64,000 nucleotides of DNA from Vampirovibrionales bacterium (GTDB lineage Bacteria > Cyanobacteriota > Vampirovibrionia > Vampirovibrionales > JAJTHC01), in contig JBKDRU010000005.1 of assembly GCA_046341215.1 (NCBI GenBank), positions 79,233-143,232 on the forward strand, given 5' to 3'. Within the stretch, counting starts at the first letter, position 1; the number at the start of each line of letters is the position of its first letter. A program made the translations under genes and the position numbers. Positions 3,759 through 60,464 of the stretch are shown piece after piece. Under the pieces are notes generated by a model, which saw only the letters and a program-made list of their open reading frames with translations, searched no databases and was not told the DNA's origin.

Positions 3759-4883
3759 TTATTCTGTGATAATGGGAAGCAACGTCTGCCTCTCCAAAGC
3801 GTCTTTCCCCAATAAATGAGGCTTGCCTGCTTCTTCATAAGCGGAATGAAACATCATCGCCGTAAACATTGTTGCTTGTCTCATCCACAGTGGCATGAAC
3901 TTTTCCGACGTCCATGCGGCTTTTAGGGCGTCTTTATAGGTCTGTCCTTTGGAATGTTCTGCTCGTAAACAACGATCCGCGTAAGCCAAGTCAAAGAGAT
4001 TCAGAAAAGAGTATTGTAATCGCTCCGCCATGGCTGATTTAAGCCATTCCTGACTTTTCGGCTGAATCTTGGCTCGAAGAGTGGAGGCATTGGCGTTCAT
4101 GTCGCCAAGCCAAGCTTGTTCTTGCTTGGTACTTTGAGCATATTCAAAGAACTTGTGACTATTTGCTTTTATTCCAAACCCTAAATCCCACTTGTGAAAG
4201 ATGCTTGTGTGTAGGGGGTTTCGCCAGTCTTGATCAAAATGGGAACCTACTCCTAAAAGAAAAGCCAGTTCCACTAACTTTTTTTTAGAAGCAGACCCCG
4301 TTTTTTTTTCTTGGGCTTTGATCGCTTGCATCTGCTCTATAATGCGTTGGTGAAAGTGAAACACACTTTTAAAGATGTTACGATTCGGATCCGCTTCTAA
4401 GCGTTCAGGCGTCAAAGGCTGTTGATCAAAATAATTTAAGGCGAATTCCAAAGAAGCGGAGGAAAGTCCTTTGTCAATACAGGCATCTCGCTCTATTTTC
4501 CAAAAGTGCTTCCAGTATTGAGCTAGCCACCCTTTATGATCGTCTTTCAACTCAAAAAAAGCAGGGAGTGTTGGGTTATGTTTCATGTAATCTGTAAGCA
4601 TTGCTTCAAGGTTGACGTAATGATTAGGACCTCTAAGTTCGGACTTCTCGAACAAATCTTTATGTTGTGGGAGACCCGCTTTACCGTCGGCGATACGAGT
4701 GCCAGCTTTAAGGATTGGGAGATGTTCAGATATAAATTGTGCAAGATCGGGAGGCAAAAGATTAGGTAGAGCTTCAATCATCAAATCATGCGTTTCCCAT
4801 GCCCACCCCTGTCGTTGGGACGAAGCAGGCAAAGCAGACGGTGCCTTTACAAAGGCAGGGACTCTATTGGCAATAGGTAACAT
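3759..4883 (-). CDS. Zinc-dependent phospholipase C / alpha-toxin-family-like protein (hypothetical)
   Basis: The motif SHFDQDWRNPLH matches the H-[YF]-x-x-D-x-x-x-P-x-H zinc site (HYFGDIDTPYH in C. perfringens alpha-toxin, HYLGDVNQPMH in B. cereus PLC). Downstream SHKFFEYA matches the H-x-x-[FY]-E zinc site. The N-proximal W-x-W-x-x-H (WAWETH) resembles the Trp1/His zinc ligands. There is no classical Sec signal peptide. Confidence 0.5.
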   Translation of the reverse strand: MLPIANRVPAFVKAPSALPASSQRQGWAWETHDLMIEALPNLLPPDLAQFISEHLPILKAGTRIADGKAGLPQHKDLFEKSELRGPNHYVNLEAMLTDYMKHNPTLPAFFELKDDHKGWLAQYWKHFWKIERDACIDKGLSSASLEFALNYFDQQPLTPERLEADPNRNIFKSVFHFHQRIIEQMQAIKAQEKKTGSASKKKLVELAFLLGVGSHFDQDWRNPLHTSIFHKWDLGFGIKANSHKFFEYAQSTKQEQAWLGDMNANASTLRAKIQPKSQEWLKSAMAERLQYSFLNLFDLAYADRCLRAEHSKGQTYKDALKAAWTSEKFMPLWMRQATMFTAMMFHSAYEEAGKPHLLGKDALERQTLLPIITE

Positions 4884-7510: not shown

Positions 7511-9124
7511 ATGTGGACAAAACCCGAAATTTCTTTTGATGCAGAACCCTTGGCTTTTCACACGGTTACTTTAGAAGACTTGCCTCACGCTCAATTGGTG
7601 CATGAAAATGTGGATTTTCTCAATCATTTAAGACATCTTAAAGCCCTGTCTTCAGAAGATCGCTTGGGGCTTTACAAAGGCGAAGAAACAGGCTATGGCG
7701 TTGAAGAAGCGATTGCCACCTTGTATGCAGGGCATCAATTCGGATATTTCAACCCTCAACTAGGCGACGGTCGTGCCGCGATTGTCGGAACCGATGAAAA
7801 CGTCCCGATTTCACAGTTTTTCCCAAAAGCCTTTCAACATTTAGTAAACGACTTCATCCACCGAAAAAAAGAACAAGGCAACAGCGAATGGGCATTCGGC
7901 GCCTTTGATTTCTTTGAAAAACCCACATCGGTTGAATTGCAATTGAAAGGTTCAGGCATCACCCCCTACTCTCGAAGTGGGGACGGCAAAGCGGTTTTAC
8001 GGTCTTCGGTGCGTGAATACTTGGCTTCTGAAGCGGTGTTTCAACTCGGCATCCCCACCACACGAGCCGTGGCTTTGGTGCATGACGCTCAAACGCCTGT
8101 GTATCGAGAAACACGAGAAAGTGCTGCGATGGTCTTGCGAGTCGCCCCGTCCTTCTTGCGTTTGGGGCATTTGGAGTATTGGGGGCGTCACGGATACGCC
8201 GAGCGTCTAACGCCTTATATCGCCTATCTTTTCCGCACGTTTTTCAAAACCGAAGGCATTGATTTTTCGCCTGTTCAGCAATTGCAAGCCGTTTTAACGA
8301 TTTCAGCGATCCTAAATGCGGTGACGATGGCTCAATGGCAAGGCGTTGGCTTTTGTCATGGCGTCTTGAATTCGGACAATATCTCGCTGCTTGGAATGAC
8401 CCTTGACTACGGGCCTTACGGCTTCTTGGATGCCTTTGACATGGGGCATATCTGCAATCATAGCGATCACGGCGGGCGTTATGCCTATAAAAACCAGCCA
8501 GCGATTGGCTTGTGGAATTACAGCCGTCTGCTCGAAGCGTGCCAAGATTTTGTCGGTAACGATGAAGATTACCAAGCCTTGAAGGAATCGATAGAAGGCA
8601 CCTTTCAAGACGCTTTTAATACCAGCTTTTTAGCGGTGTATCGCCAAAAGCTTCGCATGGAAGACCGAAAGCTTATTCCTGATATTGAGTTTGGCGAAGT
8701 GCTTAAAAGCCTGTTGGCGTACTTGCATCAAAACAAGCTGGACTACACACGCTTTTTCACAGCGTTACCAGCGTGGGAAACAGCCTTTCAAAATGAAGAG
8801 ACTCCCCATGTGGCGGATATTGAACGCCTTGCGATGGGGATCGCTTCGCCTGAAGCGGCGTGGTGGTTGCACGAGATTTACGCACCGTACTTGCAGAAAA
8901 ATGCCTTAAGCGGAGCCTCTCAAACGCTGGTGAATCCGACTGTTGTGTTGCGGAATCACATCGCCCAAGCCTTGATTGAAGACGCCCAAGCTAATCGTTT
9001 CGATGCCTTTTCTGAAGGTTTTACACGCCTTCAAACGCCGTTTGATGAGGCTCATCATGCTCACGACTGGGCGAAAGTTCCTCCAGCATCGGCGAAAGAA
9101 ATTTGCGTGTCTTGCTCATCTTAA
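7511..9124 (+). CDS. selO: Protein adenylyltransferase SelO (YdiU/UPF0061)
   Basis: The N-terminal signature YAGHQFGYFNPQLGDGRA and SelO kinase-like fold motifs are present. The C-terminus is CVSCSS, the Cys counterpart of the Sec-containing C-x-x-U tail. Confidence 0.9.
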   Translation: MWTKPEISFDAEPLAFHTVTLEDLPHAQLVHENVDFLNHLRHLKALSSEDRLGLYKGEETGYGVEEAIATLYAGHQFGYFNPQLGDGRAAIVGTDENVPISQFFPKAFQHLVNDFIHRKKEQGNSEWAFGAFDFFEKPTSVELQLKGSGITPYSRSGDGKAVLRSSVREYLASEAVFQLGIPTTRAVALVHDAQTPVYRETRESAAMVLRVAPSFLRLGHLEYWGRHGYAERLTPYIAYLFRTFFKTEGIDFSPVQQLQAVLTISAILNAVTMAQWQGVGFCHGVLNSDNISLLGMTLDYGPYGFLDAFDMGHICNHSDHGGRYAYKNQPAIGLWNYSRLLEACQDFVGNDEDYQALKESIEGTFQDAFNTSFLAVYRQKLRMEDRKLIPDIEFGEVLKSLLAYLHQNKLDYTRFFTALPAWETAFQNEETPHVADIERLAMGIASPEAAWWLHEIYAPYLQKNALSGASQTLVNPTVVLRNHIAQALIEDAQANRFDAFSEGFTRLQTPFDEAHHAHDWAKVPPASAKEICVSCSS

Positions 9125-16439: not shown

Positions 16440-17009
16440 TTAAAATAGCCACTCATTCTTTTTATCGGTGTATGGGTCTTCACTACTGTTGCGCATTGTG
16501 GTGAAAAGTGTATCCAAAGTCGTAGGTGTGTGGAGTACTTGCTTTTTATCAATAGAGAGTGTATTTAGTAAATGCTTACTAATGTGCGTTTCTATTATTC
16601 CCATTTCTTCCAATTTACTTGTTAGGGGATAGGTCAACATATTTTTTGGGTAGGCTAGAAGTTGGTAATTGTTAACATCGAGTCCTGTTCTGCCCTTCTC
16701 TCGTATACGAAATCTGAAGGGAAAATAGGGATTTTCAGGCTCAATCCCATAGATTGACTTATAACCCCTACGTGAAGCCCTATACATATTTGAAACACTA
16801 ATACCCCTAATAAATTCCTTATCATAAGTATCTACTATACGTTGTACGGCAGCCTCCCAAGTTTCTTGAGGAATGTGGGCTACCTCCTTAAAAACGGTTA
16901 CCCCTTCACGTTGTGTATTTGAGCGTTTGGAAGGAGAGAGAGACGGAGAAGCATAGAGGGGAGGAGCCTTTAATTTCATGAGAAAAACCTTTCGAAAATC
17001 AGGGGTCAT
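16440..17009 (-). CDS. Hypothetical ORFan (189 aa)
   Basis: The ATG start was verified. No motif was recognised. It looks markedly AT-richer than its flanks by eye. It lies 66 bp downstream of the radical SAM gene on the same strand. Confidence 0.4.
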   Translation of the reverse strand: MTPDFRKVFLMKLKAPPLYASPSLSPSKRSNTQREGVTVFKEVAHIPQETWEAAVQRIVDTYDKEFIRGISVSNMYRASRRGYKSIYGIEPENPYFPFRFRIREKGRTGLDVNNYQLLAYPKNMLTYPLTSKLEEMGIIETHISKHLLNTLSIDKKQVLHTPTTLDTLFTTMRNSSEDPYTDKKNEWLF

Positions 17010-22808: not shown

Positions 22809-23594
22809 TCACATTTTGACAAAAACGGTACCGTCCGTCTGTACTTGTCCCAAATAGATCTTATGATTATAACCACTTTGCTTGACCTTAATCATATCCC
22901 CAATGCCCCCATTTTGCATGGCTTGAGCATCCAATACCAAACGAATGGGGCGTGTACTTTGATGCACTTCTACCACCAATTTCACCGTCTGATTCATCAA
23001 AACCGCAGGGGGCGTCTTGACTTGAAATTTTGTAATCAACTGCCCCTTGCTTAAATTCGTGCGAGCTATGGTGGAAGTAGGTAAATCGCTCAAAAGTAAT
23101 TGGCTCACGTCTCGTAAATTGACCGTGCTGGTCGCCCGTTCCACTTTCCCGACCAAGCTTGCGCCAAACGGAATAGCTTCTTTTACCTGCCACCCCAAGA
23201 CCTGCTTTTGCAAAACCAAAGGCAAGACCAAAATCGTTTGACGATTGGACTGTGTGCCTTCTAACACAAGATTAACACTGCCGTAACCCTGTTGAAAAAC
23301 AGAAGTATCCACCCCACCATTCAAACTAAGGTTATACGCTTCCCCTGCCAGAAGTTCAAGCGAGCGAAACTTACGAGTCGCTGCCACGTTAATCCCTAGA
23401 ACAAAATCGCAGGTTTTAAGCCCTTTGGATTGACAATAGGCTTGTGTAGAAGCGTCGAGTAAAGGCTTGACCTTTTCTTGTAAGTGAGGGGCTTCCAACC
23501 ATTGTTCGGCACATGCGATGTTCGGAATTAGCCCCAAAAACGAGATAAAGACAATCCCTAGGATGTGGAAGGAAAAAAGGGACGGTCTGTTCAC
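22809..23594 (-). CDS. flgA: Flagellar basal-body P-ring formation protein FlgA
   Basis: An N-terminal signal peptide is present. The C-terminal SAF-like segment (GGIGDMIKVKQSGYNHKIYLGQVQTDGTVFV) is typical of FlgA. The gene is 15 bp downstream of flgG on the same strand. Confidence 0.6.
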   Translation of the reverse strand: MNRPSLFSFHILGIVFISFLGLIPNIACAEQWLEAPHLQEKVKPLLDASTQAYCQSKGLKTCDFVLGINVAATRKFRSLELLAGEAYNLSLNGGVDTSVFQQGYGSVNLVLEGTQSNRQTILVLPLVLQKQVLGWQVKEAIPFGASLVGKVERATSTVNLRDVSQLLLSDLPTSTIARTNLSKGQLITKFQVKTPPAVLMNQTVKLVVEVHQSTRPIRLVLDAQAMQNGGIGDMIKVKQSGYNHKIYLGQVQTDGTVFVKM

Positions 23595-23609
23595 AGTAAA
23601 ATCCCTAGC

Positions 23610-24398
23610 TTATACGATTTGGTTAATGGTTTGGAGCATTTGATCGCCCGCTTGCATGACTTTTGAGTTGGCTTCAAAAGCCCGTTGAGCGGTAATCAAA
23701 TTGATGAGTTCTTCAACAATCTGCACGTTAGAGTTTTCTAAGAAACCTTGCCCAATCGTCGTTCTGGCAAATTCGCCTTGACCCAACTGCCCGACAATCG
23801 GATCGCCTGAAGATGGCGTACGGGTATATAAGTTGCGCCCTTGGGCTTCAAGTCCCGCAGGGTTAGCAAAGCGAGCGAGCTGAATTTGACCGATTTCTTG
23901 GAAGTTACCCGTGGCATCGCGAATACTAACCGAGCCGTTCGCTCCAATGGTGACTTCGGTAGAATCTTGGGGAATCGTCATTTGAGGAATGAGAGGGTAG
24001 CCGTCTGTGGTCACGATGCTACCGTTGGCATCTCGTTTGAAGGAACCGTCTCGAGAATAGCCGATTTGCCCGTTGTCGAGCTGGATTTGGAAGAAGCCGT
24101 CGCCTTGAATCGCCATATCTAAGGGATTGGCGGTTTGAATAATCGGGCCGTTAATAAAGTCACGTTGCGTGGCAGAAATACGAGTCCCTAAGCCCACTTG
24201 TACGCCAACAGGGTCAATGGTGCCTTGGCTCCCTAATGAACCGGGCGATGAAAAGGTTTGGTTAATGAGATCTTGAAATTCAGCACGGGTTTTTTTATAG
24301 CCTGTGGTGTTGACATTTGAAACGTTGTTGGCGATAATATCCATGTTAAACTGTTGCGTCGTCGCACCAGTGGCGGCAGTGTATAGTGATCTTAACAT
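23610..24398 (-). CDS. flgG: Flagellar basal-body rod protein FlgG (distal rod)
   Basis: The N-terminal rod signature LYTAATGATTQQFNMDIIANNVSNVNTTGYKK and the C-terminal rod domain are present in a 262-aa protein. Confidence 0.8.
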   Translation of the reverse strand: MLRSLYTAATGATTQQFNMDIIANNVSNVNTTGYKKTRAEFQDLINQTFSSPGSLGSQGTIDPVGVQVGLGTRISATQRDFINGPIIQTANPLDMAIQGDGFFQIQLDNGQIGYSRDGSFKRDANGSIVTTDGYPLIPQMTIPQDSTEVTIGANGSVSIRDATGNFQEIGQIQLARFANPAGLEAQGRNLYTRTPSSGDPIVGQLGQGEFARTTIGQGFLENSNVQIVEELINLITAQRAFEANSKVMQAGDQMLQTINQIV

Positions 24399-24596
24399 TT
24401 AGATTGTCTCTCTCTTAAATCATTCGTTACAGTGAACTATTTTAAAAAAATAAAGAAAAGGTTCTTGATTGATATTTTGACGTTTTTAAAGAAGTAAGAA
24501 CTTAAATAGAATCGTTCTTTTGTAGTATGACGAATTTGTTGAGGCTCTACCATAATCTAAAGGTTTATAACTATAAATAATGAAAGAACAGAACCT

Positions 24597-25517
24597 TTGA
24601 AACTATTTCAGGTATTACTCCCTTTTCGACAACAAAAACCTGAAATATACCATATCCCTCCCCCTAATTCTAAAGTGCGTAAAGTTCTAGAACATTGCCC
24701 TAGAGGTCACTTAAGTGGTGAAGGATTAATGCACTATTGGGTAGTACTTTCAGTCGACCGTTTTGTTAAAGCCATCCCCAATACTGCAAGAGGTGCTAGA
24801 GAAGCAAAGCTTAATAATGAAATTTATGACCGTTTTGTAAAAGCAGGGCTTCAAAAGCACATTCCTGAACTATATTCCTATTCTTCTTTTCCAGCAGATC
24901 CAAAAAGAAAATTACCTCGCTCATTGAAACATAATGTTATTCTGCTTGAATTTGAAAGTATTGACGGGAAATCATTAAGCCAGCTGAGACGAAAAGGCGT
25001 TTATTCACATGAAGATATTAACACCCTATTAAACGAGGAAATTGCCCCCATGTTGTTTGAAGTCTATAAAAAAACGGGCTATATTTTCTTTGATAGGAAT
25101 TCGGGGAACTTCATGGAATCGACTAATAAAAAGGGGGGGAAAGTCATTACGATGGTTGATTTTACCCCTTGTTTTGTCAAAGACTTAAGCAAGATGACAC
25201 TGAGGCAGATTTTCAGTAAAGAAGTCATGGGTGCAAAGCTTTTAAAAGAATTAACAACCCACGAAAAAGCCCTATTAAAACAGCATGAGAATGTGACGTG
25301 GGACGCCTTGCAAAAAGCAACAGAGCCCATTGAAGGGTTGGACGACCAAACGCTCAAAGCTTGGGTCGATTCAAAAATAGAATCTCGTATTGCGGAACAT
25401 CTTGCACATGAACATCACCGAAATCAATATGATTGGCGAGCCGTATTAAAAAAAACGTCCATACGATTCGGCTTTAATCGGTGGATGGTATCACTCTTGC
25501 ATGCTCTAAAAAAATAA
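24597..25517 (+). CDS. Atypical protein-kinase-like fold ORFan (hypothetical)
   Basis: A catalytic-loop-like FFDRNSGNF (D-x4-N), a DFG-like VDFTP and a VAIK-like FVKAI are present. The start is uncertain: TTG at 24597, or ATG at 24729 preceded by a GAAGGA ribosome-binding site. The gene looks AT-rich by eye. Confidence 0.3.
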   Translation: MKLFQVLLPFRQQKPEIYHIPPPNSKVRKVLEHCPRGHLSGEGLMHYWVVLSVDRFVKAIPNTARGAREAKLNNEIYDRFVKAGLQKHIPELYSYSSFPADPKRKLPRSLKHNVILLEFESIDGKSLSQLRRKGVYSHEDINTLLNEEIAPMLFEVYKKTGYIFFDRNSGNFMESTNKKGGKVITMVDFTPCFVKDLSKMTLRQIFSKEVMGAKLLKELTTHEKALLKQHENVTWDALQKATEPIEGLDDQTLKAWVDSKIESRIAEHLAHEHHRNQYDWRAVLKKTSIRFGFNRWMVSLLHALKK

Positions 25518-25546: not shown

Positions 25547-27415
25547 CTACTTTGTGGTAGCGTTAGATGAAGTTTCTTCAGGCTTTGGCGGAGCATCCTT
25601 CGCTTTTTTGAAACGATATTCGGTTTCGGTGACCACTTGATTCAACCATACAGGGAAAAAGCCAATAACCGCAGCCACTAAAACGTAACCAATCGAATCG
25701 ATAGGGGATCTCATATTACGTGCCGATTCAGATAAAATACGACGAACCTCTAAGGATTCAAGCGTTGGGAGCTTCAACGTCTTCTTGACCCAATCTAAAG
25801 CAGGTAAGGGTACCTTCGTGCCTAAAAAGTTAAACGACGCTTTTAAGTGCTTTGCCCCATCGCTTTGAAGGCGTTTAATTGTGGCATCCAAGGCATCGAC
25901 TTCTTTCATCGCACTGGCAGAATACGTATACATGGCTTTAAAGTGCTTTAAAACGCCTTGTCCATGTGAAGAATTTAAGACATCCAACACGTTTTGACCT
26001 GCTCTTAAGGCAGCCACGCTATCTTCTAATTGAGTAAAATGCTCATTTTTCAGGGTATTAAAGACTTGCGAATAGCTTAGCGCTTTACCGTCTTTGGATT
26101 TAGGATGGGTGGCCATGACTTTTTGGGTGCAGACATCGATAAAATGTTGATAGTTCAGGGCTTTGTCTGCCATGAGGTTAAAGGCAGTGATGTCACCTTT
26201 TTGCATAGCCAAATCTAAATGCCCTTTGAAAGTGGCGTAATCAGGGGTTTGTGTCGCTGCTTTTAAATAGGCTTTTTCTTTAGGAAGTTCCCCAAGCAAG
26301 GCTTCTTCTTGAATCTTTTTGTGAAGACCTTGAAGATCATCGGCGACGATTTCTTTTAAGGCCTTAAGCGTGATGTGTTCTACCGCAAAGTCTTTGTCTA
26401 AACCCTTGAGTTCAAATAAGCGACGAATCAAGGTATCGGGATCCGTATTAAGGGTGGCACGACGCATCGTCTTCGTTCCTTGTTCAAGGGAAAGCTCGTT
26501 AATCGCATCGTAGAAATGGGTGCTTAAATGTGTTTTTGCGGTGCCTACGTCTTGCGTATGAGCAATCATTTTACGCCCCCCACTATGAAGCGCATCGATC
26601 ATTTGAAGCATAAAGCGAGCCTTTGCTTTTTCATCCATCGACGCTTGGGGATTGTTCAATGTTTTCAAAAATCGCGTCGTTTCCGTTTGCCAAAGCGGGT
26701 AAGCTTGAAGGTAATCTTCCATAGGTTTGGCTAAATTACTATTCGCTTTATGCATGGCTGCAAGTTTAGCCAACGTTTCTGGTGCATTGGGGGTAAGGTT
26801 ATAAATTTCTTTAATTTGCTGATAAGTAATCGAATGAACTGGCTTACGAGGGTTTAAGCTTCCGTGCATGAGCATTAGATTGGTATGCTTAGGGCTTTTA
26901 CCTAAGCTGAATAAGGTGCCGTCTTTTTGTTTTTTAGCCAGCATCGCATGCTTAACAGGCTCTAACGCAAACAAGAACAGTGAAATAGACAACACATCCC
27001 GAATAAGCACATCTCGAATTGCACGGTAATCACGCCCTTCAGCTATACCGTCATTATCTTCATCGATTTCAGGCGCTCTGAGGTATTCAGAATGCATACG
27101 AGCAGGCATCATCGAACCAAAGAACATTAAAATCATGAAGCTCAAAGGCAACCTGGGAATAATTACCCCAAAGAGTTCAGGTGTTTTTTCAAATTTGGCA
27201 AATTCCACACTGTCCGTGAGTAGGGACGTCATTTTTGCAGTAGTCATTTGCACCGCTTTCGATGCTGGGTTGGATGTATTTCGAGCCTGAGCATTTAGGC
27301 GATCCGAAAAGTTCTTGCCTTTAATAGGAATACTTTTCACGTCATGGTAATAAAAGTGATTCAGGGCATCCACAAAGCCATTATTGTTGTAAGGGGATTT
27401 ATTAGACATCATCAT
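25547..27415 (-). CDS. Large hypothetical membrane-associated protein (622 aa), second gene of a two-gene operon
   Basis: The start is MMMSNKSPYNNNG, which is Ser/Asn-rich. Hydrophobic segments lie near residues 85-105 and 575-595. Its ATG overlaps the stop of the upstream gene (ATGA). Confidence 0.6.
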   Translation of the reverse strand: MMMSNKSPYNNNGFVDALNHFYYHDVKSIPIKGKNFSDRLNAQARNTSNPASKAVQMTTAKMTSLLTDSVEFAKFEKTPELFGVIIPRLPLSFMILMFFGSMMPARMHSEYLRAPEIDEDNDGIAEGRDYRAIRDVLIRDVLSISLFLFALEPVKHAMLAKKQKDGTLFSLGKSPKHTNLMLMHGSLNPRKPVHSITYQQIKEIYNLTPNAPETLAKLAAMHKANSNLAKPMEDYLQAYPLWQTETTRFLKTLNNPQASMDEKAKARFMLQMIDALHSGGRKMIAHTQDVGTAKTHLSTHFYDAINELSLEQGTKTMRRATLNTDPDTLIRRLFELKGLDKDFAVEHITLKALKEIVADDLQGLHKKIQEEALLGELPKEKAYLKAATQTPDYATFKGHLDLAMQKGDITAFNLMADKALNYQHFIDVCTQKVMATHPKSKDGKALSYSQVFNTLKNEHFTQLEDSVAALRAGQNVLDVLNSSHGQGVLKHFKAMYTYSASAMKEVDALDATIKRLQSDGAKHLKASFNFLGTKVPLPALDWVKKTLKLPTLESLEVRRILSESARNMRSPIDSIGYVLVAAVIGFFPVWLNQVVTETEYRFKKAKDAPPKPEETSSNATTK

Positions 27416-29085
27416 GACACCTTATCCTCCCCCACTGGTTTTGAAGCAGATGCTTTCAAGTGCTGGCGAATGGCGGCTTGCTTACTCAAAGGCAAGCCTT
27501 CCGTGGGTACAGGGGCTTGCGTATTTTTTTCATGGGGTTTGGCTTTGTTGAGCGTGACTAAGCGGTTGGCGGGGTATTCTCGTCCTCTTTGAATCGCATG
27601 AGACAAGTACCACATCCAGCCCAGCATCCACATCAAAGAACCTAGTGTAATGAAGGCTTTGGTGGCTTTTGCGGTATTGAAAGATTGAGCAAGGGCCTCC
27701 CTGAAATCACCCTTACCTGCTTTAGCAAAGAAATTACGTAAGCCTGCCACCATTAAATCACGTCCCTGGTCCATACCACGTAAATGATATAAGAAAGCCT
27801 TTTGAGTAGTTCCCTTACCCTGCATGGTATTCAGATGGATCATTTGCTTTTTCATACGTGTATTTGGGGAATGAATGGCGTTCGCCTTCAAAGCCGTGTG
27901 TTCTGCAATGTTATACAACGCTTGCATTTTAGCGGTTAACAGGGTATGTTCTTCACGACGTGTCTTATTAAAGAAAATAGAACCTGAACCATGTTCAACA
28001 TCAAACGCTAACAACTTGCCTTGAACATCAGCTATTTCTTTTATGACTTGATCCAAGGTCACATCTTTTAAGCTAAGTAGTGAATTGTTGTTGAGTTTGG
28101 TATGACTATTTAAAGACGCTTTTAATCCAAAAAGCTCGTCGTCTTTTAAGCCTTTTTTCAGGCTGTTTAAATGCCCATTACTCAGATGATAATAGGGATT
28201 GATCAAAGTATTGCCATGAAATTCGATCGCTACTTTTTCTTGACGCTTTAGATCAGGAATGCCTTCAAAAACACGTTCCACATAGCCTTTGCCGAAGGCT
28301 TCTAAGTTTTTTCGATCTTGGGGGTTAGTCGGCCGAATGGGTGTTTCAGTCAAAAACTGTTGCACATTTTGATGTTCTTGCGTCAGTTCGCTTTCAGACA
28401 TCTGCAAGGAACGACGCCCTGTCCAGCTTAAAAACTTGTTACGACTGAGTAGAGGCACTAGACCAAACACCAAGGCAGGCACCAGCAAGGAACCTGGGGC
28501 CGCTTGTACTTCTCTCATTATTTCTTCACCCAAGTTCGCCCAATTGGCATTTTGGGATTTTTTGCAGCGAATATAAATCCACTTATTTAAGCCTTTGCGT
28601 TGTTGGGCTTCAGGGTCTTTTTCAGGGTCATAAGGCACGGCCCCTCGTTGTAAAGAACGTGAAATACGAGGAAACCCCATACCCACAAAGTCTAAAATCG
28701 TAAAATCCCAAAAGAATTGTGAATCAATTTTAGATGCCAAATTTGCCGCTAGTACTGGATTCAATGTGGACGCATACCCTACTGCTGCTAAAGTCAGCAG
28801 TTCAGGCGAAATTTCAAATTTGGCTTCTTCGTGCTTCTTTTTTCGTCGCTTGAAGGGGTTGAGTCGCTGTGCTAAAGAAGTTTTTTCGGTGGCTTTCCCT
28901 TCCATTTCAGTGGCTGGAGTGGGTAAGGAAGGCTGGGTTTCGAAGGCATCGTGAGTAGGGAATTCTTCTATCATCATATTAGTTAAAGAAGGCGTGGATG
29001 CCTTTCGCCTTTGCGGCTCGTCTTGTTCAGCTTTGAGCTTTGCAAGTGTATGATAATAAAGAGACGACTGTTTAATGGACATCAT
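27412..29085 (-). CDS. Large hypothetical membrane-associated protein (~557 aa), first gene of the operon
   Basis: The frame opens at a TTG at 29097 and the likely start is ATGATG at 29085. There are two hydrophobic segments and no recognisable domain. Confidence 0.55.
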   Translation of the reverse strand: MMSIKQSSLYYHTLAKLKAEQDEPQRRKASTPSLTNMMIEEFPTHDAFETQPSLPTPATEMEGKATEKTSLAQRLNPFKRRKKKHEEAKFEISPELLTLAAVGYASTLNPVLAANLASKIDSQFFWDFTILDFVGMGFPRISRSLQRGAVPYDPEKDPEAQQRKGLNKWIYIRCKKSQNANWANLGEEIMREVQAAPGSLLVPALVFGLVPLLSRNKFLSWTGRRSLQMSESELTQEHQNVQQFLTETPIRPTNPQDRKNLEAFGKGYVERVFEGIPDLKRQEKVAIEFHGNTLINPYYHLSNGHLNSLKKGLKDDELFGLKASLNSHTKLNNNSLLSLKDVTLDQVIKEIADVQGKLLAFDVEHGSGSIFFNKTRREEHTLLTAKMQALYNIAEHTALKANAIHSPNTRMKKQMIHLNTMQGKGTTQKAFLYHLRGMDQGRDLMVAGLRNFFAKAGKGDFREALAQSFNTAKATKAFITLGSLMWMLGWMWYLSHAIQRGREYPANRLVTLNKAKPHEKNTQAPVPTEGLPLSKQAAIRQHLKASASKPVGEDKVS

Positions 29086-29361
29086 ACGAATGTGCAAAAC
29101 CTATACTTTAAAATCCCAATGAACGAAACGATGCTTGTAGCTCCTAAGTGTATGGAAGTAACCATTCACAAACGTTACAAGATTCAAAGCCACATCAGCA
29201 TAAAACCCTTTTTTAATAAGGATTGTGCCAAACGTCGTTACATTCGAAAACGAGAGAAGACGATAACACCACGATGAGAATACGAGAAAAAACGTTCGGT
29301 GAATATATTCAAAATATTAAGAATTTAGTTTACCTCATAATGGGCGTTTTGTCAAAGGTTG

Positions 29362-31276: not shown

Positions 31277-32245
31277 ATGAACTTTCCTTCTCTTGCAGTG
31301 CATCCCTTAATTTTCCCCAGTCAACATAAGACGTCTTTGACTCAAGCGTCTCCCGCAAAACGTGTTTCACCGTCACCCTTGTCGCAACGTCTGGGGGTCA
31401 CATTTGTAAATGAAGCGGGGGGAATTTTAACCAAAGCCGATGCTTATAAACGATTAATAGACTTTTTTTCTCACAATCTCAATGCTGTTTTAGAAACTTA
31501 TCTAAGTGGTAGAACCCCACCCACAGAAAAAGAACTAAAAACTTGGTTGGGTTTGCTTGAAGCAGATTTTGAAAACAAAGCCCGTCTTTTGGCAGCACTT
31601 CCCGATGAAATTAAGGTTCGGATTTCATTAGGAAGCGATCCTATATTGACCTTATATGAGCGAGAAGTCGATTTCAAGACTTTAAGAGATTGTATCGATA
31701 CTGCTCTCAAGGCAGGTAATGGCTCTTCCTACACAAATGCACTGAAATATAATATGCCATCTGACACAGATCCTAATATGATGGTTCCCATTATTTCGAT
31801 AATAGATGATAAAGGGAATCTGCCTTTTATAACTCATCATCTTAGGTTCCATGCGGTAACTAAGAACATTCCTTATAATCCCAAATTTAATCGCCTCATG
31901 CTCCAATTTACCGAGCTCCTGGGACTATCCAGAAGAACTTCCCCTAAAACTAAACAGCCTCAGTATTGGTGGACTTTTCACCAAGTAATGGCGTCTCCTA
32001 TTCATAAACGCATCCCCAAAGAGAAGATAGCTGAAACACCTTTAATGCAAGAATGGAGTTCACGTAAAAACCGAACCACACTAAGTATAGAACTCAATAA
32101 ATTATCCAGAACAGAAACTCGTTCCATCTCTACATGGATTTGGGACATATTGCGTGAAAGGATGCCAGACTACTCTTTGTCAGGAATAGCGACCCTGCCA
32201 CAAAGAGAGCTTCCCAAAAAGCTCCCTCTCCCAGCTCCTAAATAA
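31277..32245 (+). CDS. Hypothetical ORFan (322 aa)
   Basis: The ATG was verified. The N-terminus is Ser/Pro/Thr-rich with no hydrophobic signal. No motif was recognised. Confidence 0.45.
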   Translation: MNFPSLAVHPLIFPSQHKTSLTQASPAKRVSPSPLSQRLGVTFVNEAGGILTKADAYKRLIDFFSHNLNAVLETYLSGRTPPTEKELKTWLGLLEADFENKARLLAALPDEIKVRISLGSDPILTLYEREVDFKTLRDCIDTALKAGNGSSYTNALKYNMPSDTDPNMMVPIISIIDDKGNLPFITHHLRFHAVTKNIPYNPKFNRLMLQFTELLGLSRRTSPKTKQPQYWWTFHQVMASPIHKRIPKEKIAETPLMQEWSSRKNRTTLSIELNKLSRTETRSISTWIWDILRERMPDYSLSGIATLPQRELPKKLPLPAPK

Positions 32246-32646: not shown

Positions 32647-35283
32647 TTAAACGGCTTTTTTGGAAGGCGTTGGCTTTTGAGTCAAGGCATACATCAACGC
32701 GGCTTCTTGAGGCGTCAGTTGCTTGGGTACGTTTGTCGCTTGTGAAGCCGTCGGGTTTTTCGCCTGTTGAGCCAAGGCGTATAACAAGGCGGCTTCCTTG
32801 GGGTCAATGTCTCGAACCTTTTTTGTGCCAGCCAAACGATAGGCTTCTTCGATTTGGGCAGGCGTCAAGGTGATTTTTTCTTTTGTGGACGCTTCAGGAT
32901 ATTTGGCAATTAAGGCAATATCTTCTTTTTTAATCGAACTAAACTCGCGATCTTTAATCGCTTTAAGGGTTTCTCTAGCTTTGTCACGCTCTTCGTATTC
33001 GACCAAATACGTGGGTTTGCCCACAGTCTTGTCTTGAATCGTTTCCACCCCTTTACGTAGTTTGCCTGCTAAGAGGAGTTGACCTCCCAGTCCAATGATA
33101 ACACCCGCCCCTGTCAACCAGTGAAAGCCTGCCACGACAAAGGGGAGTTTAAAGCTCGTCAAATAATGCCCCCCCATCAGCTTACCCAAACGATTGCCTC
33201 GGTTCAAGAACACCATCAACTGATGACCACCGATCATCGGCAAGGCAATGCCTAAACAGGCTCTTAAACCTGCTTTAATTTGTTCACCCAAGACAAAGGG
33301 CTTTTCAGCAGGCTTTTGGACTTCAGTGGTTTTAGCGTCTTTACTTTGAGGCTTGGCTTGGACGTTGTCTGGGACGTTGGCTTGAAGAGGTGGCGTAGAC
33401 TTTGCTTGGGGCGCTTTTGTTTTAGACGGCTTACCTGCGGCCATAAATGCCGCCCAGCCCGTACTAAAGGCGGTCACGGCTCCTAAGAAGAACATTAGAT
33501 ATCTTGGTTGAGCTAAACTCTTCAGCATACCAAGCAGCGGATTATGACCCCCCTTGCTCAAGTCAGACATCGCTATGGCTTTCTTTTTCAAGACTTCTTC
33601 AGGCTGTTCATGCAAGGCAAACTTTGCCATATCAATGACGCCACGCCACACGGAAGCCACACCACGTCCTAAACCACTCACGCCCCACGCTTCAGAAAGT
33701 TCTTTCTGATTATGAATGAATTGTTCATGTTCAGAGATGTTTTGCATTAAACGTTGAATCGAACGTGGCAAGACATCGTGGAGTTTTTTAAAGGCTGTTA
33801 AACTTTTTTGAGCATGGTTACTAAACTCCCCATTGAGTTTAAAGAAATCATTCACCGTCATTTTCTTCGAAGGATCTAACGCTGCAATGTGTTTTTCAAC
33901 CGCTTCTTTGCCCAACAAAGCTTCCCAATGGGCTTGATTACGGGTGATTTCTTGCAGAGCCGTGCTTCTTAATTCTACGAGCTTCGCTTCAGGTGTGAAA
34001 ATTTTAGAAAAATAACGACTGAATGGCAGGACTAAATTTTTATCCCCCACCTTTTTTAAACGAAAAATAGACGATTGTATATCTTTAACTTGAAGCAACT
34101 GGGGGTTATGTTCCAACGCCTTAACTTGTGCAGGCGTCATAGATTTGGCGGTATCGATATTCATATGTTCGGGCGACCAGAACCAACGCTGTCCTCCCTT
34201 GTAAAGGTCTGAATGAATTTGGTGTAAATAGGCGTGCTTCACGCTCGGCGGATTGACTCCGTTTACATACGCAATGACGGCTTTTTGAAGTTCTTTGACG
34301 GCGTCTGAATCATTAGGCGCACCTTCTAAAATAACCTTCATTTGTTGAGGACACTGTTGAATAAAATCATCAAACTGAGTTAAATATTCAGGATTCTTAT
34401 CTCTTCCCAAAACACTCAGGAGTTTGGATTTGGAGAATTTTGACATCGCTTCAGGCGAACCAGACGCCTTAGCGTTCGCTAAGGCTTCTTCAAATACGGC
34501 TTTAAAGTGATGATAGAGGTTTTGGTCTAACGCCTTATTTTCCTTGCCTTGGGTTAAAAAGCCTTTGGCATCTGCTTCAAGGAAGGGGTTCATCAACGTC
34601 GTAGTCACATGCCGATGCTGTTCAGGCGTCATGATTTGTTCAAAACGTTCGTAATAATCGTGATGGGTAGTCGCTTCTTTCAGCGTTTGATGCAAGTTGT
34701 TATAATGGGCAATATAGCGTTCTATCAAAGAATCGGGAGCAAGAGTTACCCCTGTTTTAAGCTTATTGGCCGTCGCATTGAAGGCATGTTCATGATTGCC
34801 AAGCCAATAACGGTTGTATTCATCGGAAGGCAGGTCGCCTAGGTACGCACGCATCCATGTAGGCAAGTTTTTAAAACTACCTTCTTTAGGCGTCCAGCCA
34901 TCTATCCATCTGGCGAAACCTCCCAAAAGGGTATTATGCGCGGTTTTTTTATTAAGGGGATTAATGGTTCCTAAGTTGGGATCCAAGCCCGCCAAGCGAT
35001 TAGCGATATTCGTAAACGCCAATAGAGAAACGAGTCCTAAGCCAATAGCAGCGCCTTTTTCGGGGTAAGACAAGCGTTCAGACGATTCTGGATCCATGAA
35101 CTGCATGGTCAGTGCAAGATCAAAGGCCTTTTTAGCCAACGAATCGCCTACTTCTCCCGCGTTTTCAAGTTGTTGTTGAACTTGATCTTGAGCGTTGTTT
35201 TGCACGTTTTTCATGGCTTGTAAGTGATTTGAATTTGTCGGAAAGTTCGGACTGCTTGATGAACTGGTATTAATCGATGCCAT
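32647..35283 (-). CDS. Large hypothetical protein (878 aa) with internal hydrophobic segments and C-terminal tandem repeats
   Basis: The N-terminus is Ser/Asn/Thr-rich (MASINTSSSSSPNFPTNSNH). There are three hydrophobic stretches, including a ~60-aa Gly-rich double-helix-like segment. The C-terminus carries two tandem copies of the motif (P/T)xEAAL(L/M)YAL(A/T)Q. Confidence 0.6.
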   Translation of the reverse strand: MASINTSSSSSPNFPTNSNHLQAMKNVQNNAQDQVQQQLENAGEVGDSLAKKAFDLALTMQFMDPESSERLSYPEKGAAIGLGLVSLLAFTNIANRLAGLDPNLGTINPLNKKTAHNTLLGGFARWIDGWTPKEGSFKNLPTWMRAYLGDLPSDEYNRYWLGNHEHAFNATANKLKTGVTLAPDSLIERYIAHYNNLHQTLKEATTHHDYYERFEQIMTPEQHRHVTTTLMNPFLEADAKGFLTQGKENKALDQNLYHHFKAVFEEALANAKASGSPEAMSKFSKSKLLSVLGRDKNPEYLTQFDDFIQQCPQQMKVILEGAPNDSDAVKELQKAVIAYVNGVNPPSVKHAYLHQIHSDLYKGGQRWFWSPEHMNIDTAKSMTPAQVKALEHNPQLLQVKDIQSSIFRLKKVGDKNLVLPFSRYFSKIFTPEAKLVELRSTALQEITRNQAHWEALLGKEAVEKHIAALDPSKKMTVNDFFKLNGEFSNHAQKSLTAFKKLHDVLPRSIQRLMQNISEHEQFIHNQKELSEAWGVSGLGRGVASVWRGVIDMAKFALHEQPEEVLKKKAIAMSDLSKGGHNPLLGMLKSLAQPRYLMFFLGAVTAFSTGWAAFMAAGKPSKTKAPQAKSTPPLQANVPDNVQAKPQSKDAKTTEVQKPAEKPFVLGEQIKAGLRACLGIALPMIGGHQLMVFLNRGNRLGKLMGGHYLTSFKLPFVVAGFHWLTGAGVIIGLGGQLLLAGKLRKGVETIQDKTVGKPTYLVEYEERDKARETLKAIKDREFSSIKKEDIALIAKYPEASTKEKITLTPAQIEEAYRLAGTKKVRDIDPKEAALLYALAQQAKNPTASQATNVPKQLTPQEAALMYALTQKPTPSKKAV

Positions 35284-35622: not shown

Positions 35623-35962
35623 ACTCACGACGGGAAAGAGAGGGAAAGGGCTCCCAAAGGAGCCAAAAGGGTCGGTTTTTAAGGAGCTACTCTTCTTCAT
35701 TATGACCGCAATTTAAAGCCTTGCCTAGTGACGAAACACCATGTTTTTCTTCGAAGTAAGTGAATTCATAAAATGAGATTGTTTTTTTAATATAACAATT
35801 TGTTAACATTTAGCAATTCGTAGCTTTATAAATTGTTTATTAAAGCATAAGACACAAATAAAGTTCTTTTGTCTAAATACCCCCAAAACTAGCTTTTCGT
35901 TGCTCTATTTATTCTTCTTTATTAAATTTCCCTGTACACCTCACATGAAAGGATCACTTAAG

Positions 35963-37207
35963 ATGATTTCTCTTAATCCAAATAACCCTTGGTTGCCTAA
36001 TAACCAACAACCCCCTTACGATTTAGCCACCACCTCTCCCTATCCATCTGCGTACCCTGCTTTAGGGACTCCCGCTCAAAATACGTATGCTGTAGGAGCA
36101 ACCTATGGGCAAAATACTTCTGGCTGGGATACCTATCAAGCTCCGTATCAAGCTCCGTATCAAGCTCCAGCTGCAAATACATTGCTCGCCACGAATACCC
36201 AGACTTACACGAATGCCCCTACTACGATTACTGAGAAAACGTATGCCCCTGATACGAGAATCTATGCCCCTGAAATCACCTACAATTATATTACGAAGAC
36301 TTTTGAATATAAGCCTACCATCACACACGAAGCAGCTCCAGCTCCAGTGTATCCACCTCCAGTGCCCCCCCCAGCTCCAGTGTATCCAGATCCGCCTAAG
36401 ATTGAGCTTCCTAAAATTCAATATCCACCTCAAGAGTCTAAGAAAAAAGAAGGGACAAACTGGTTGCCTTGGCTTATAGGAGGAGGAGGAATCCTCGCCG
36501 CCCTCTTCTTGCCTAAACTTTTCGGCAAGAAAGATAAAGTTGAAGCCAAAGCGGAAGCCAAAGCTGAAGCAACGGTTACGGCTACGCCTGAAGCTGTTGA
36601 AGAAAAATCTGAAACACCCGCTAAAAAAGACACGGTTTACACCAAGCTTGAAATCAACGCTCACGGAGATCCTATTTTTGTGACACGCAATAGTCTAGGT
36701 GAAGTTACTAGACAAGAAGAAGTCAAAAGTGGCGTAGTCTTTGAAGACGGCAACTCTTCTTTAAGCGTTCAAATGGACAGCCAAGATCCTAAGAACGTTT
36801 TTATGAAAAGCTTTAGCTATACAGTCGATGGTAAAACCGTTCAAGGTGATTCTAAAGGTAACGTTACCGTTGGCGGAAAATCCGTTGCGGTGGGTTCTAG
36901 TGCAGAACTGCCAAATGGCGGTACGGTCACGGTTTCTAAAGAAGACGGCACTTCTATCGGTGGCTTTAAAAATCAGTCTAAGATCGAAATTAAATCCCCG
37001 AACGAATCGGGTAATGGTTATGAAAACATTACTTTACATGCTCGTAAAAACAAACGTGGTTTAATCATGTACGAGTTTAATGCTAGTAAAAAATCTGAAG
37101 CCTCGAATACTGCTGAACGTGTCAAAAATGGATTTGTAAAAAAAGCCTTTGATAAAGAATATAAAAATCAAGGGGTGGATGATACCCCTGTCACCGATAA
37201 AAAATAG
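35963..37207 (+). CDS. Repetitive Pro-rich, single-pass membrane/surface protein (hypothetical)
   Basis: The ORF opens at 35900, and the likely start is MISLNPN at 35963. It has YQAPYQAPYQAP and PAPVYP repeats, one transmembrane segment (WLPWLIGGGGILAALFLP), an (EAKA)n run and a ~230-aa C-terminal domain. Confidence 0.5.
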   Translation: MISLNPNNPWLPNNQQPPYDLATTSPYPSAYPALGTPAQNTYAVGATYGQNTSGWDTYQAPYQAPYQAPAANTLLATNTQTYTNAPTTITEKTYAPDTRIYAPEITYNYITKTFEYKPTITHEAAPAPVYPPPVPPPAPVYPDPPKIELPKIQYPPQESKKKEGTNWLPWLIGGGGILAALFLPKLFGKKDKVEAKAEAKAEATVTATPEAVEEKSETPAKKDTVYTKLEINAHGDPIFVTRNSLGEVTRQEEVKSGVVFEDGNSSLSVQMDSQDPKNVFMKSFSYTVDGKTVQGDSKGNVTVGGKSVAVGSSAELPNGGTVTVSKEDGTSIGGFKNQSKIEIKSPNESGNGYENITLHARKNKRGLIMYEFNASKKSEASNTAERVKNGFVKKAFDKEYKNQGVDDTPVTDKK

Positions 37208-44258: not shown

Positions 44259-44696
44259 TTGTCTTTCACCCATTCTCTATGGCAGACTTTTAATCAGCTT
44301 CCTGCGTGGCTTTTATTGAGTTTAGGTGCTTGCCTAGGAGCCTTTGCCCGTTACGGATTCACTCGCTTGTTTTCCCTTGAATGGCAAGGCATTTTGGGGA
44401 TTAACCTACTGGGATGCTTAGGCTTTGGCATCGGACTAGGGTTGACAATCGCCCTGCCTGAACGATTCGGCACGCCTGCCTTTCGGCTCTTTTTTCTAAC
44501 AGGGTGCATGGGTGCGATGACGACCTTTTCTAGCTACATGTTTAATATTTACCAAGCCCTTAACACAAGTCCCACCCCAGCTTGGGGGACGCTACTTTTA
44601 AACATCGCCTTGCAACATGGCTTAGGTCTCGTCCTGCTCGCCTTTGGCGTATGGATGGTACCTAGACTATTAAGACTGTTTATACCCTTACCTTAA
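44259..44696 (+). CDS. crcB: Fluoride ion channel CrcB/FluC
   Basis: A four-transmembrane small protein with the CrcB signature LGACLGAFARYGF. It has a TTG start with a GAGGAG ribosome-binding site 10 nt upstream. It overlaps the flgL stop convergently by 9 bp. Confidence 0.7.
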   Translation: MSFTHSLWQTFNQLPAWLLLSLGACLGAFARYGFTRLFSLEWQGILGINLLGCLGFGIGLGLTIALPERFGTPAFRLFFLTGCMGAMTTFSSYMFNIYQALNTSPTPAWGTLLLNIALQHGLGLVLLAFGVWMVPRLLRLFIPLP

Positions 44697-45599
44697 GAAG
44701 CTAAACAGTGTCTGCGGTAAAATCCGAGCCATCACCCCTAAGCTCGATTGGTTAATCTGTTCTTGAAAACGTAAATCGGTCACCAGCTTGGGCATGTCCA
44801 CATCTTGAATCGTGCTATAAAGTTGCGCTGATGAATCTTGACGGGTTTGGGTGCGGTCTTGCGTCGCGTTAAGCTGATTCAACGTTGAACCAATCGTCGC
44901 TTGACTAGAAAGTAAACTATTCATTTGCGTCGTCAATAAGTCCAACTGCGTACGAGTGGTTATGGTATCTGCCGTTGCTAACGCATTTTTCAAATCAATC
45001 ATCGTTCTAAAGACGCCTGCGGTCGTGTCGCCTAATAAGGCGTCGCCAGTGACGTTTAAGGTCACGATTGAGTTTTTCGCCACATCAATTTGTCGTTGAA
45101 AACTTCCTGTGGCTGGTGTGCCTGAATAGGTGACGACATCACCGACTCGTGTATAAGGGACGGCATTCGTGGTAGCGCCTGCAAATAGGTGGATGTCGCC
45201 TTGTTTGAAATTACCCAACTGCACCAGTTGATCGGTCAACAAATTGACTTCTTTTGAAATCGACAACATACCACTAGCCCCTGTGGTGACGTTAGCCCCC
45301 TGTGTGGCGAGTTCTTTGGCACGTTGTAGGATTTCCACCATCTGCGTCATGGCAGCATCCGTCGCTTTGAGTTCAGAAACGCCAGTGGCAATGTTTTTAA
45401 TATACTGTTCGTCTTCATTCATACTTCGCGTGACGCTTAACAACTGGGTCAAGCCTAGTGGGTCGTCACTCGCACGAATAATTTTTCGACCCAAGGACGC
45501 TTGTTCTTGGATTTTATTCAACCGCACCTGTGATTGTTGTAACCACTGGTTGCTTTGTTGGGATTGGTAGCCTGTGGCGATACGTCCGATGCCTGCCAT
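44688..45599 (-). CDS. flgL: Flagellar hook-associated protein 3 FlgL (flagellin-like N/C domains)
   Basis: The N-terminal pattern LGRKIIRASDDPLGL carries the SDDP motif typical of FlgL, where flagellin has AKDDAAG. A C-terminal flagellin-like helix is present in a 303-aa protein. Confidence 0.65.
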   Translation of the reverse strand: MAGIGRIATGYQSQQSNQWLQQSQVRLNKIQEQASLGRKIIRASDDPLGLTQLLSVTRSMNEDEQYIKNIATGVSELKATDAAMTQMVEILQRAKELATQGANVTTGASGMLSISKEVNLLTDQLVQLGNFKQGDIHLFAGATTNAVPYTRVGDVVTYSGTPATGSFQRQIDVAKNSIVTLNVTGDALLGDTTAGVFRTMIDLKNALATADTITTRTQLDLLTTQMNSLLSSQATIGSTLNQLNATQDRTQTRQDSSAQLYSTIQDVDMPKLVTDLRFQEQINQSSLGVMARILPQTLFSFLR

Positions 45600-47717: not shown

Positions 47718-48314
47718 TTAGATGATCTGAATGGTTTCGCCACCCTTCATCTGTACATAAATACGACCATCTGCGAGCATAAACACCGCATGACGAGGAC
47801 GGTTTCCTCCCACTTCGGTGTGTTTAATGCTCAAGCCCATACGAGCCAGCGTCGTGCGAGCGGTAATAGCATTTCTCGCTCCAATATTCAGGGGATTACC
47901 ACGTCCACCCCCAAACGTAAACAGTTGGCTTCCGCCAATTAAGACGCATTGGGTATTTGCCACACTCGCTCCTAAGCCTTGAAGATGTTCCCATAGCTTA
48001 GGCAGGGCAATATCGGCATAGCAGGCTTTAAAGGCATTGTCATCTAACGGTTTTTTGAAACCAGTGGTCTGCGTTTGTTGAAACTCACTGTCAGGCAACA
48101 TAATGTAGGCGACACCTCCGACATGGGCATGGGTGTCATACAGAATCACACATAAACCTGTGGTCACATTTTTGATGTAATAATTGGTTTTAGAAAGGGA
48201 GGAGGCTTGAAAATCGCCTATTTCAATTTCTTGAATGCTTGAAATTTGCTTCAGCACATTGGAAAGATCTAAGTTAGGCGTGGTCTGAGATTGAGTTTGA
48301 ATCATGGGAATCAC
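47718..48314 (-). CDS. cheD: Chemoreceptor glutamine deamidase CheD
   Basis: The conserved Cys region CVILYDTHAHVGGVAYIMLP, GGSQLF and NIGARN motifs are present. Confidence 0.7.
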   Translation of the reverse strand: MIPMIQTQSQTTPNLDLSNVLKQISSIQEIEIGDFQASSLSKTNYYIKNVTTGLCVILYDTHAHVGGVAYIMLPDSEFQQTQTTGFKKPLDDNAFKACYADIALPKLWEHLQGLGASVANTQCVLIGGSQLFTFGGGRGNPLNIGARNAITARTTLARMGLSIKHTEVGGNRPRHAVFMLADGRIYVQMKGGETIQII

Positions 48315-48339
48315 TTTATGCTTTTAAGGGTGTGCAGGT

Positions 48340-60298: not shown

Positions 60299-60464
60299 GA
60301 TAAAACCCTTTAATTTAAAATGTGTTTTATAGAAAATAACACAAAATTCATCAATCTTCAATTTTCCCTAAGCAAGCATCCCCCTCCATTCCGCCGATGC
60401 CCTTAAAGCGTCCGTTGAAAAGCACCGAAAGAGTCTTAAACCCTAGACCGAAGGAGGCTCCCCT

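Follow-up and report, generated by a model that had tools for sequence, protein, structure and literature searches.

A 306-residue protein encoded in a 64,000-nucleotide stretch of a Vampirovibrionales genome (positions 79,233 to 143,232 of contig JBKDRU010000005.1; hereafter the window) is most likely a catalytically competent phosphotransferase, namely a soluble, lineage-specific member of the protein kinase-like (PKL) superfamily. We give this reading a probability of roughly 60%. The gene lies at 24597–25517 on the + strand, runs from a TTG start codon to a TAA stop codon, and is monocistronic, each flanking gene being oppositely oriented. The NCBI entry for the identical protein is designated as 'MAG: hypothetical protein ACK551_01190 [Vampirovibrionales bacterium]'. 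A first-pass annotation of the DNA had pointed to the motifs FFDRNSGNF, VDFTP, and FVKAI as a kinase-like catalytic core. These are present as described at residues 164–172, 187–191, and 56–60, respectively, and the residues that would form the core (D166, N171, D188, K58, and E69) are found in all homologues.

The core alignment consists of five members with 25–63% identity, and the subgroups are mutually 25–30% identical. Among its 31 invariant columns are F56, K58, E69, N73, E120, G124, D166, R167, N168, G170, N171, E174, D188, W235, and W280-R281, and G43-L44-M45 is invariant too when the full-length open reading frame (ORF) of L008, the locus of a distant homologue, is aligned. The catalytic-loop motif FFDRNSGNF (25086–25112, + strand) contains the invariant D166, R167, N168, G170, and N171 and falls between the predicted strands 162–165 and 172–177, which is the canonical position of the catalytic loop. 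The DFG-like motif VDFTP (25155–25169, + strand) with the invariant D188 directly follows the predicted strand 182–186, and its counterpart in two homologues (P0004 and P0005) is a literal DFG. The VAIK-like β3 motif F56-V-K58-A-I (24762–24776, + strand) has two invariant residues, F56 and K58, the latter in predicted strand 55–61; its presumed salt-bridge partner is the invariant E69 (24801–24803, + strand) in the predicted αC helix (64–82). A degenerate candidate for the glycine-rich loop, G41-E-G43-L44-M45 (24717–24731, + strand; consensus GxGLM[HN]), is located 13–17 residues before K58 and directly before strand 47–52, and we infer that it is the nucleotide-binding loop. Further invariant positions are E120 and G124 in the stretch E120-S-I-D-G124 at the end of β5 and the hinge (24954–24968, + strand), which in P0004 yields weak matches to the Pkinase, PknB, MAD6, and PD-T4-6 models, and W235, I261, I265, E272, and W280-R281 in the helical C-terminal part (25299–25439, + strand). 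The N-terminal tail (residues 1–40; 24597–24716, + strand) is variable, contains PPP, and is extended to approximately 80–120 proline-rich residues in P0004, P0005, and the L008 ORF starting at 9770.

Taken alone, the kinase-like motif is a weak signal. Among shuffled versions of the protein, approximately 1–2% contain a loose K..E..D-x4-N..D[FILMV] pattern, and 2 of the window's 42 long stop-free segments carry it as well. The motif is nevertheless regarded as non-chance because every one of its residues is invariant across five homologues whose subgroups are only 25–30% identical. In addition, the sequence matches below threshold are all to kinases: ABC1 (E = 0.058 for P0002 and 0.15 for P0003), Pkinase (0.039 for P0004), PknB (0.0035), and the PD-T4-6 kinase (2.5e-4).

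AlphaFold2 prediction on the five-sequence alignment gave a model with a predicted local distance difference test score (pLDDT) of 65.5 and a predicted template modelling score (pTM) of 0.63. The model starts with strand 47–52, strand 55–61 (carrying K58), a long helix 64–82 (E69), strand 92–98, and strand 114–120 (E120). These are followed by a second long helix (138–160), strand 162–165, the loop 166–171 with D166 and N171, strands 172–177 and 182–186, D188, and a helical C-terminal part of approximately 118 residues. The order of elements is the canonical kinase topology with every motif in its canonical element. Specifically, the model has the bilobal PKL fold, with a β-rich N-lobe plus αC and a helical C-lobe with the catalytic loop and DFG, and the β3 Lys, αC Glu, catalytic Asp, Asn at +5, and metal-binding Asp correspond to K58, E69, D166, N171, and D188 in five of five sequences. 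The best-modelled stretch is residues 201–270 (mean pLDDT of 79–90 in 10-residue blocks), and confidence drops past residue 270. In a Foldseek search against the PDB, all of the top 50 matches were kinase- or pseudokinase-domain proteins (E = 1e-3 to 1.5e-2, probability up to 0.96) with template modelling scores of only 0.2–0.3. The fold matches overall include the secreted kinases or pseudokinases BPK1, HopBF1, and Lpg2603. The structure prediction that the first-pass annotation had proposed as a check returned a kinase-like fold and no other, and the catalytic Asp and Asn, whose loss from homologues it had named as a counter-indication, are retained throughout.

Several observations weigh against the kinase assignment. 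The pLDDT is below 50 at the catalytic loop (167–174) and the DFG region (187–193). The model alignment contains five sequences, and the two models were built on this one shared alignment and hence are not independent. Searches of Pfam, NCBIfam, PADLOC, and the PDB (the last by phmmer and by the family profile) gave nothing that reached threshold, and the family profile recovered no kinase from the PDB sequences. The family lacks the HxD His as well as the third Gly of GxGxxG, and no APE-like motif is recognizable in the five-member alignments. Since the structural scores lie in the grey zone and both models derive from one shallow alignment, we rate the predicted kinase-like fold as very probable and no higher.

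If the protein is a kinase, ATP-Mg would be held between the small β-rich N-lobe and the helical C-lobe. K58 on β3, fixed by E69 of αC, would position the α- and β-phosphates under the degenerate GxGLM loop, N171 and the DFG-like D188 would bind the metal ions, and D166 would act as the catalytic base toward the acceptor hydroxyl. Nucleotide binding, phosphotransfer, and these residue roles are proposed by analogy with known kinases. The gene forms a transcription unit of its own and keeps a conserved chromosomal position by a flagellar rod gene. Its product's DRNxGN loop, with a Gly ahead of the Asn, is more similar to the loops found in ABC1/UbiB, APH, choline kinase, and FN3K than to the HRDLKPxN of Hanks kinases; the acceptor may therefore just as plausibly be a small molecule or something atypical as a protein.

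The gene had been taken for an ORFan, and this description did not hold: in a related Vampirovibrionales genome an orthologue occupies the very same position, and two further lineages have distant homologues. Apart from the protein itself, a word-index search of 5.8 billion proteins returned a single sequence, P0002, at 63% identity. Exhaustive phmmer comparison with the representatives of 1.84 billion clusters gave three matching clusters, represented by P0002 (E = 1e-110), P0003 (1e-16), and P0004 (8e-15), and a profile search added one member, P0005, which is close to P0004. A scan of GTDB genomes gave one locus, from the species of P0002. All named copies are designated 'hypothetical protein' and come from Vampirovibrionales or Vampirovibrio sp.; no homologue from V. 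chlorellavorus itself surfaced in the protein searches. The gene thus belongs to a very small, order-restricted family of approximately five known members without a curated model. A literature search found nothing on the family or on CP050876. The deposited call of P0003 (XVJ51301.1, 309 aa; Vampirovibrio sp. CP050876.1, L008 9770–10930) is apparently truncated at the N-terminus: the ORF reaches 386 aa from a TTG codon, and its proline-rich head MMLLPPPQNTIIIKPQPQPQPRPRP matches the starts of P0004 and P0005.

Comparison of the window with the close-orthologue locus L001 indicated that the kinase-like gene evolves approximately 10-fold faster than its neighbours at the amino-acid level. The amino-acid identity is 62.8% and the ratio of nonsynonymous to synonymous substitution rates (dN/dS) is 0.30 (dN 0.27, dS 0.90). 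The corresponding values are 100% and about 0 (dN = 0) for clpP, 97.1% and 0.039 for clpX, 97.5% and 0.020 for flgG, 95.6% and 0.065 for tig, and 75–80% and 0.12–0.17 for the two large ORFs downstream. The gene is under purifying selection and is therefore real, with a constraint much weaker or patchier than that of its neighbours. By region, the identity between the orthologues is 14% in residues 1–29, 39% in residues 218–250, and 86% in residues 160–217, which contain the catalytic loop, the DFG, and the next segment. Such a pattern would be expected of an enzyme with a working active site and a fast-changing surface.

The first-pass annotation had thought of a secreted effector or toxin-like modifier. 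The rapid evolution is also one of the grounds for considering a translocated effector kinase, exported via the conjugative-type type IV secretion system (T4SS) proposed for Vampirovibrio or via the flagellar export apparatus and phosphorylating targets in algal or bacterial prey. Its dN/dS of 0.30 against 0.02–0.065 in the neighbours, the confinement of the family to Vampirovibrionales, and the low GC content at third codon positions (GC3) are in line with such a role. So are the variable N-terminal tail, which is modelled with low confidence (pLDDT approximately 40) and is proline-rich in distant members, the basic C-termini (ALKK, RFKK, KRVA, and RRIA), and the occurrence of BPK1, HopBF1, and Lpg2603 among the fold matches. 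V. chlorellavorus is a predator with predicted effector delivery by a T4SS (PMC4451040), and this predatory biology also speaks for the effector. However, the protein, which is basic overall, has no Sec-type signal or transmembrane segment (maximum 19-residue Kyte–Doolittle mean of 0.81), the check for Sec export having covered a Sec-like hydrophobic segment. Furthermore, the gene lies among housekeeping and flagellar genes away from secretion genes, V. chlorellavorus itself gave no homologue, and a predatory habit of the organism behind the source metagenome-assembled genome is an assumption. A translocated effector is considered unlikely. The bolder version, in which a whole family of prey-directed or flagellar-export-dependent effector kinases serves predatory Vampirovibrionales, with the tail or the basic C-terminus as export signal and the fast evolution as the trace of an arms race with algae, would be quite unlikely.

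A kinase fold could also lack kinase activity, either as a pseudokinase scaffold or because it performs other chemistry such as AMPylation (as SelO) or glutamylation (as SidJ). The degenerate G-loop, the missing HxD His, and the absence of a visible APE motif would suit this possibility. Against it, the five residues whose loss is typical of pseudokinases (K, E, D, N, and D) are all invariant, no part of this rapidly evolving protein is better conserved than the catalytic segment, and an hhalign comparison with the window's own SelO showed no relationship. We consider an inactive or differently acting kinase fold quite doubtful.

The chromosomal position of the gene is conserved. The close orthologue occupies the same position, in the gene order mfd, radical-SAM, dapB, clpX, clpP, tig, flgA, flgG, the kinase-like gene, and the two large ORFs, and the gene is divergent to flgG in the window and in the close-orthologue loci L001–L004. 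In the loci of the distant homologues (L005–L008) it is convergent with flgF (TIGR02490, 181.7 bits) across a 4-nt gap, an SLT gene precedes flgF, and PGI and flgF are the neighbours. A rod gene thus adjoins the kinase-like gene in both subgroups, but the gene and its orientation differ (flgG versus flgF). A cytoplasmic kinase connected with motility or the assembly of the flagellum, and regulated together with the rod genes via a shared divergent promoter region, might be proposed from the adjoining flgG and flgF genes and from the perfectly conserved blocks in the spacer shared with flgG. Yet the kinase-like gene is never co-operonic with a flagellar gene, its partner and orientation change between the subgroups, and we know of no kinase that is required for rod assembly. 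CheD, HDOD, and SHMT genes lie nearby in the window, and CheD-HDOD and SHMT genes are also found within approximately 10 kb of the homologue in L008, indicating that the wider region is positionally conserved. In the window, the flagellar and chemotaxis genes are scattered: flgA-flgG at 22809–24398, a flagellin-family gene at 44688–45599, CheD and an HDOD protein at 47718–49230, and a small rod-family gene by MotA/ExbB-ExbD-type genes at 60465–60926. Given the scatter of flagellar genes across this genome and the conservation of the wider region (CheD, HDOD, and SHMT), the rod-gene adjacency may be an inherited position rather than a function, and a flagellar kinase appears improbable. Relative to L001, flgA has diverged far more at synonymous sites than its operon partner flgG and the remaining neighbours, with a dS of approximately 1.5 and 86% amino-acid identity for flgA (22809–23594 versus L001 8203–8943) and a dS of 0.73 and 97.5% for flgG.

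That the protein has no kinase fold at all, being a lineage-specific protein with a chance motif and a misleading AlphaFold2 model from a shallow alignment, is very improbable. The frequency of the loose pattern in shuffles, the moderate-to-low model confidence, the grey-zone structural scores, and the absence of a significant sequence match to any kinase model speak for it. Against it are motif residues that are exactly the invariant ones at 25% family identity, match lists of both models that are almost purely kinases, which is unexpected of a misfolded model, and independent weak hidden Markov model matches that are all to kinases.

The AT-rich character of the gene and of the approximately 200-bp spacer before it, remarked upon in the first-pass annotation, was borne out by the composition. 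The GC content of the ORF is 38.7% (GC3 33.9%) against 45.0% for the window, placing it at the 4th percentile among 921-bp windows, and that of the 198-bp spacer at 24399–24596 is 26.8% (0.1 percentile). The same annotation had described the region as an island. Here the synteny is conserved and the GC content is low in each lineage (39.1% versus 45.3% for the locus in L001, and 41.2% versus 43.8% in L008); low GC is a family-wide trait and no mark of recent transfer. An island acquired by horizontal transfer was rejected on the basis of the conserved synteny, the low GC common to the orthologues, and a dS within the range of the neighbouring ORFans and flgA.

The start codon, previously described as ambiguous, is now largely settled on the TTG at 24597. 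It is the sole canonical start upstream of residue 27, and the first ATG corresponds to Met45. Four observations favour this TTG: in the alignment it coincides with the orthologue's GTG start, a pair of indels shortly after it (3 and 6 nt) preserves the frame, the segment N-terminal to Met45 (PPP..VLEHCP.G.L.G.GLMHY) is conserved at the protein level, and the distant homologues have still longer, proline-rich N-terminal extensions initiated at non-ATG codons. A six-codon upstream ORF is present at 24580–24600 (ATG AAA GAA CAG AAC CTT TGA), and its stop codon overlaps the TTG start of the kinase-like gene; its ATG is not kept in L001.

The AT-rich spacer between the divergent flgG and kinase-like genes (24399–24596, no strand assigned) is probably a shared promoter or regulatory region. 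Blocks identical in L001 are TTGTCTCTCTCTTAAATCATTCGTTACA by the flgG start, ATAGAATCGTTCTTTT.TAGTATGACGAA at approximately 24507–24536, and AACTATAAATAA at 24569–24580, whereas the first 20 codons of the adjoining ORF are nearly unconserved. Promoter-like sites in the spacer did not exceed the expectation from shuffles. A structured RNA or riboswitch was rejected: no Rfam match to the spacer rose above noise, and none of its inverted repeats was convincing.

On the flgG side, the distal rod protein is encoded divergently at 23610–24398 on the - strand (TIGR02488, 329.7 bits versus a cut-off of 252.75) and is followed by flgA. On the other side, two overlapping ORFs of 622 and 561 aa (25547–29097, - strand; 25547–27415 and 27412–29097) are convergent with the kinase-like gene. 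Both are predicted membrane proteins with transmembrane segments and have no match in Pfam, NCBIfam, or PADLOC. They are kept beside the close orthologue (80% and 75% identity, dN/dS 0.12–0.17) and are missing beside the distant homologues, so that they were rejected as functional partners; they were also rejected as mutual paralogues, as they show no significant similarity to each other. No antitoxin gene was found among the neighbours of the kinase-like gene, and no secretion gene adjoins it. Lineage-specific genes are generally plentiful in the window: ORFs without a Pfam match (189–878 aa) are located at 31277–32245, 32647–35283, 35900–37207, 3759–4883, 16440–17009, and 59270–60361, the first of which is proline-rich with low GC (41%, GC3 34%).

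The order Vampirovibrionales has been little studied; it is non-photosynthetic and belongs to the lineage that is sister to the oxygenic cyanobacteria, and its cultured member preys on Chlorella. Evolution approximately 10-fold faster than that of the neighbours alongside a strictly conserved active-site segment, together with adjoining rod genes in both subgroups, makes it reasonable to consider the kinase-like gene for a role in interaction or regulation that is specific to the lineage. The rate contrast with the neighbours and the host organism likewise make the protein a reasonable target for simple biochemistry. If it is an active kinase, a sequence family that is uncatalogued, with no Pfam or NCBIfam model, would be added to the PKL superfamily, with the unusual signature GxGLM ... 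FxK ... DRNxGN ... D[FI]. New divergent kinase-like families turn up regularly, and with approximately five known members the practical impact of this one is modest.

Among known systems, the Hanks kinases (Pkinase PF00069; PknB and YabT) have the same predicted order of secondary structure and nearly the same spacing of the β3 Lys, αC Glu, D-x4-N loop, and DFG-type Asp (K58, E69, D166, N171, and D188 here), and the C-lobe past the DFG is likewise full-length at approximately 118 residues. However, the window protein gave no match to PF00069 (threshold 31.7 bits) at E ≤ 1, and P0004 reached 13.8 bits (E = 0.039). In place of GxGxxG and HRD the family has a GxGLM[HN] loop and [FLA]-D-R-N-x-G-N, and no APE appears in the alignments. 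The protein differs from Hanks kinases in lacking the His-Arg before the catalytic Asp and the Lys at D+2, its motif being DRNxGN, and has no recognizable APE or αF DxWxxG motif. The catalytic loop ends in G-N-[FILM], as it does in ABC1/UbiB/ADCK, APH, choline kinase, and FN3K. ABC1 (PF03109, threshold 22.9 bits) gave weak matches across the αC-to-catalytic-loop region of P0002 (13.0 bits, E = 0.058) and P0003 (11.6 bits, E = 0.15) and no match to the window protein, and the N-terminal extension specific to ABC1 is missing from the family, as far as can be judged from sequence. The Pfam models of APH/choline kinase (PF01636), Kdo/WaaP (PF06293), RIO1 (PF01163), and CotH (PF08757) gave no matches at E ≤ 1 for the window protein, P0002, P0003, and P0004 or at E ≤ 0.1 for P0005.

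HopBF1, Lpg2603, and Toxoplasma BPK1 share with the protein a divergent Gly-rich loop, lineage restriction, and fast evolution, but are 7–13% identical to it and show no relation at the sequence level. The minimal kinases of the HopBF1 type are smaller than the present 306-aa protein with its full C-lobe, and neither a secretion signal nor a site for a host-activation cofactor was identified in it. RIO, Bud32, and Ark1 are universal housekeeping proteins, in contrast to the present family, which is limited to a single bacterial order; neither RIO nor Bud32 models matched, and the helical C-terminal region of the present protein is longer. As to kinases of defence systems, only P0004 gave weak local matches (PD-T4-6, 18.3 bits, E = 2.5e-4, approximately 50 residues; MAD6, E = 0.013–0.017). 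The window protein matched neither PD-T4-6 nor MAD6 in PADLOC and NCBIfam, and a defence system was rejected for want of partner genes nearby. A toxin–antitoxin module of the HipA type was rejected as well, the gene being monocistronic with opposite-strand neighbours in both arrangements and without HipA matches. The window also encodes a protein adenylyltransferase of the SelO family, itself a kinase-fold protein (7511–9124, + strand; PF02696, 319.7 bits), which was rejected as a relative of the family with an hhalign probability of 0.2%. The kinase-like protein falls outside every curated family that could be tested, and is most appropriately classed as a new sequence family of very small size inside a well-known superfamily.

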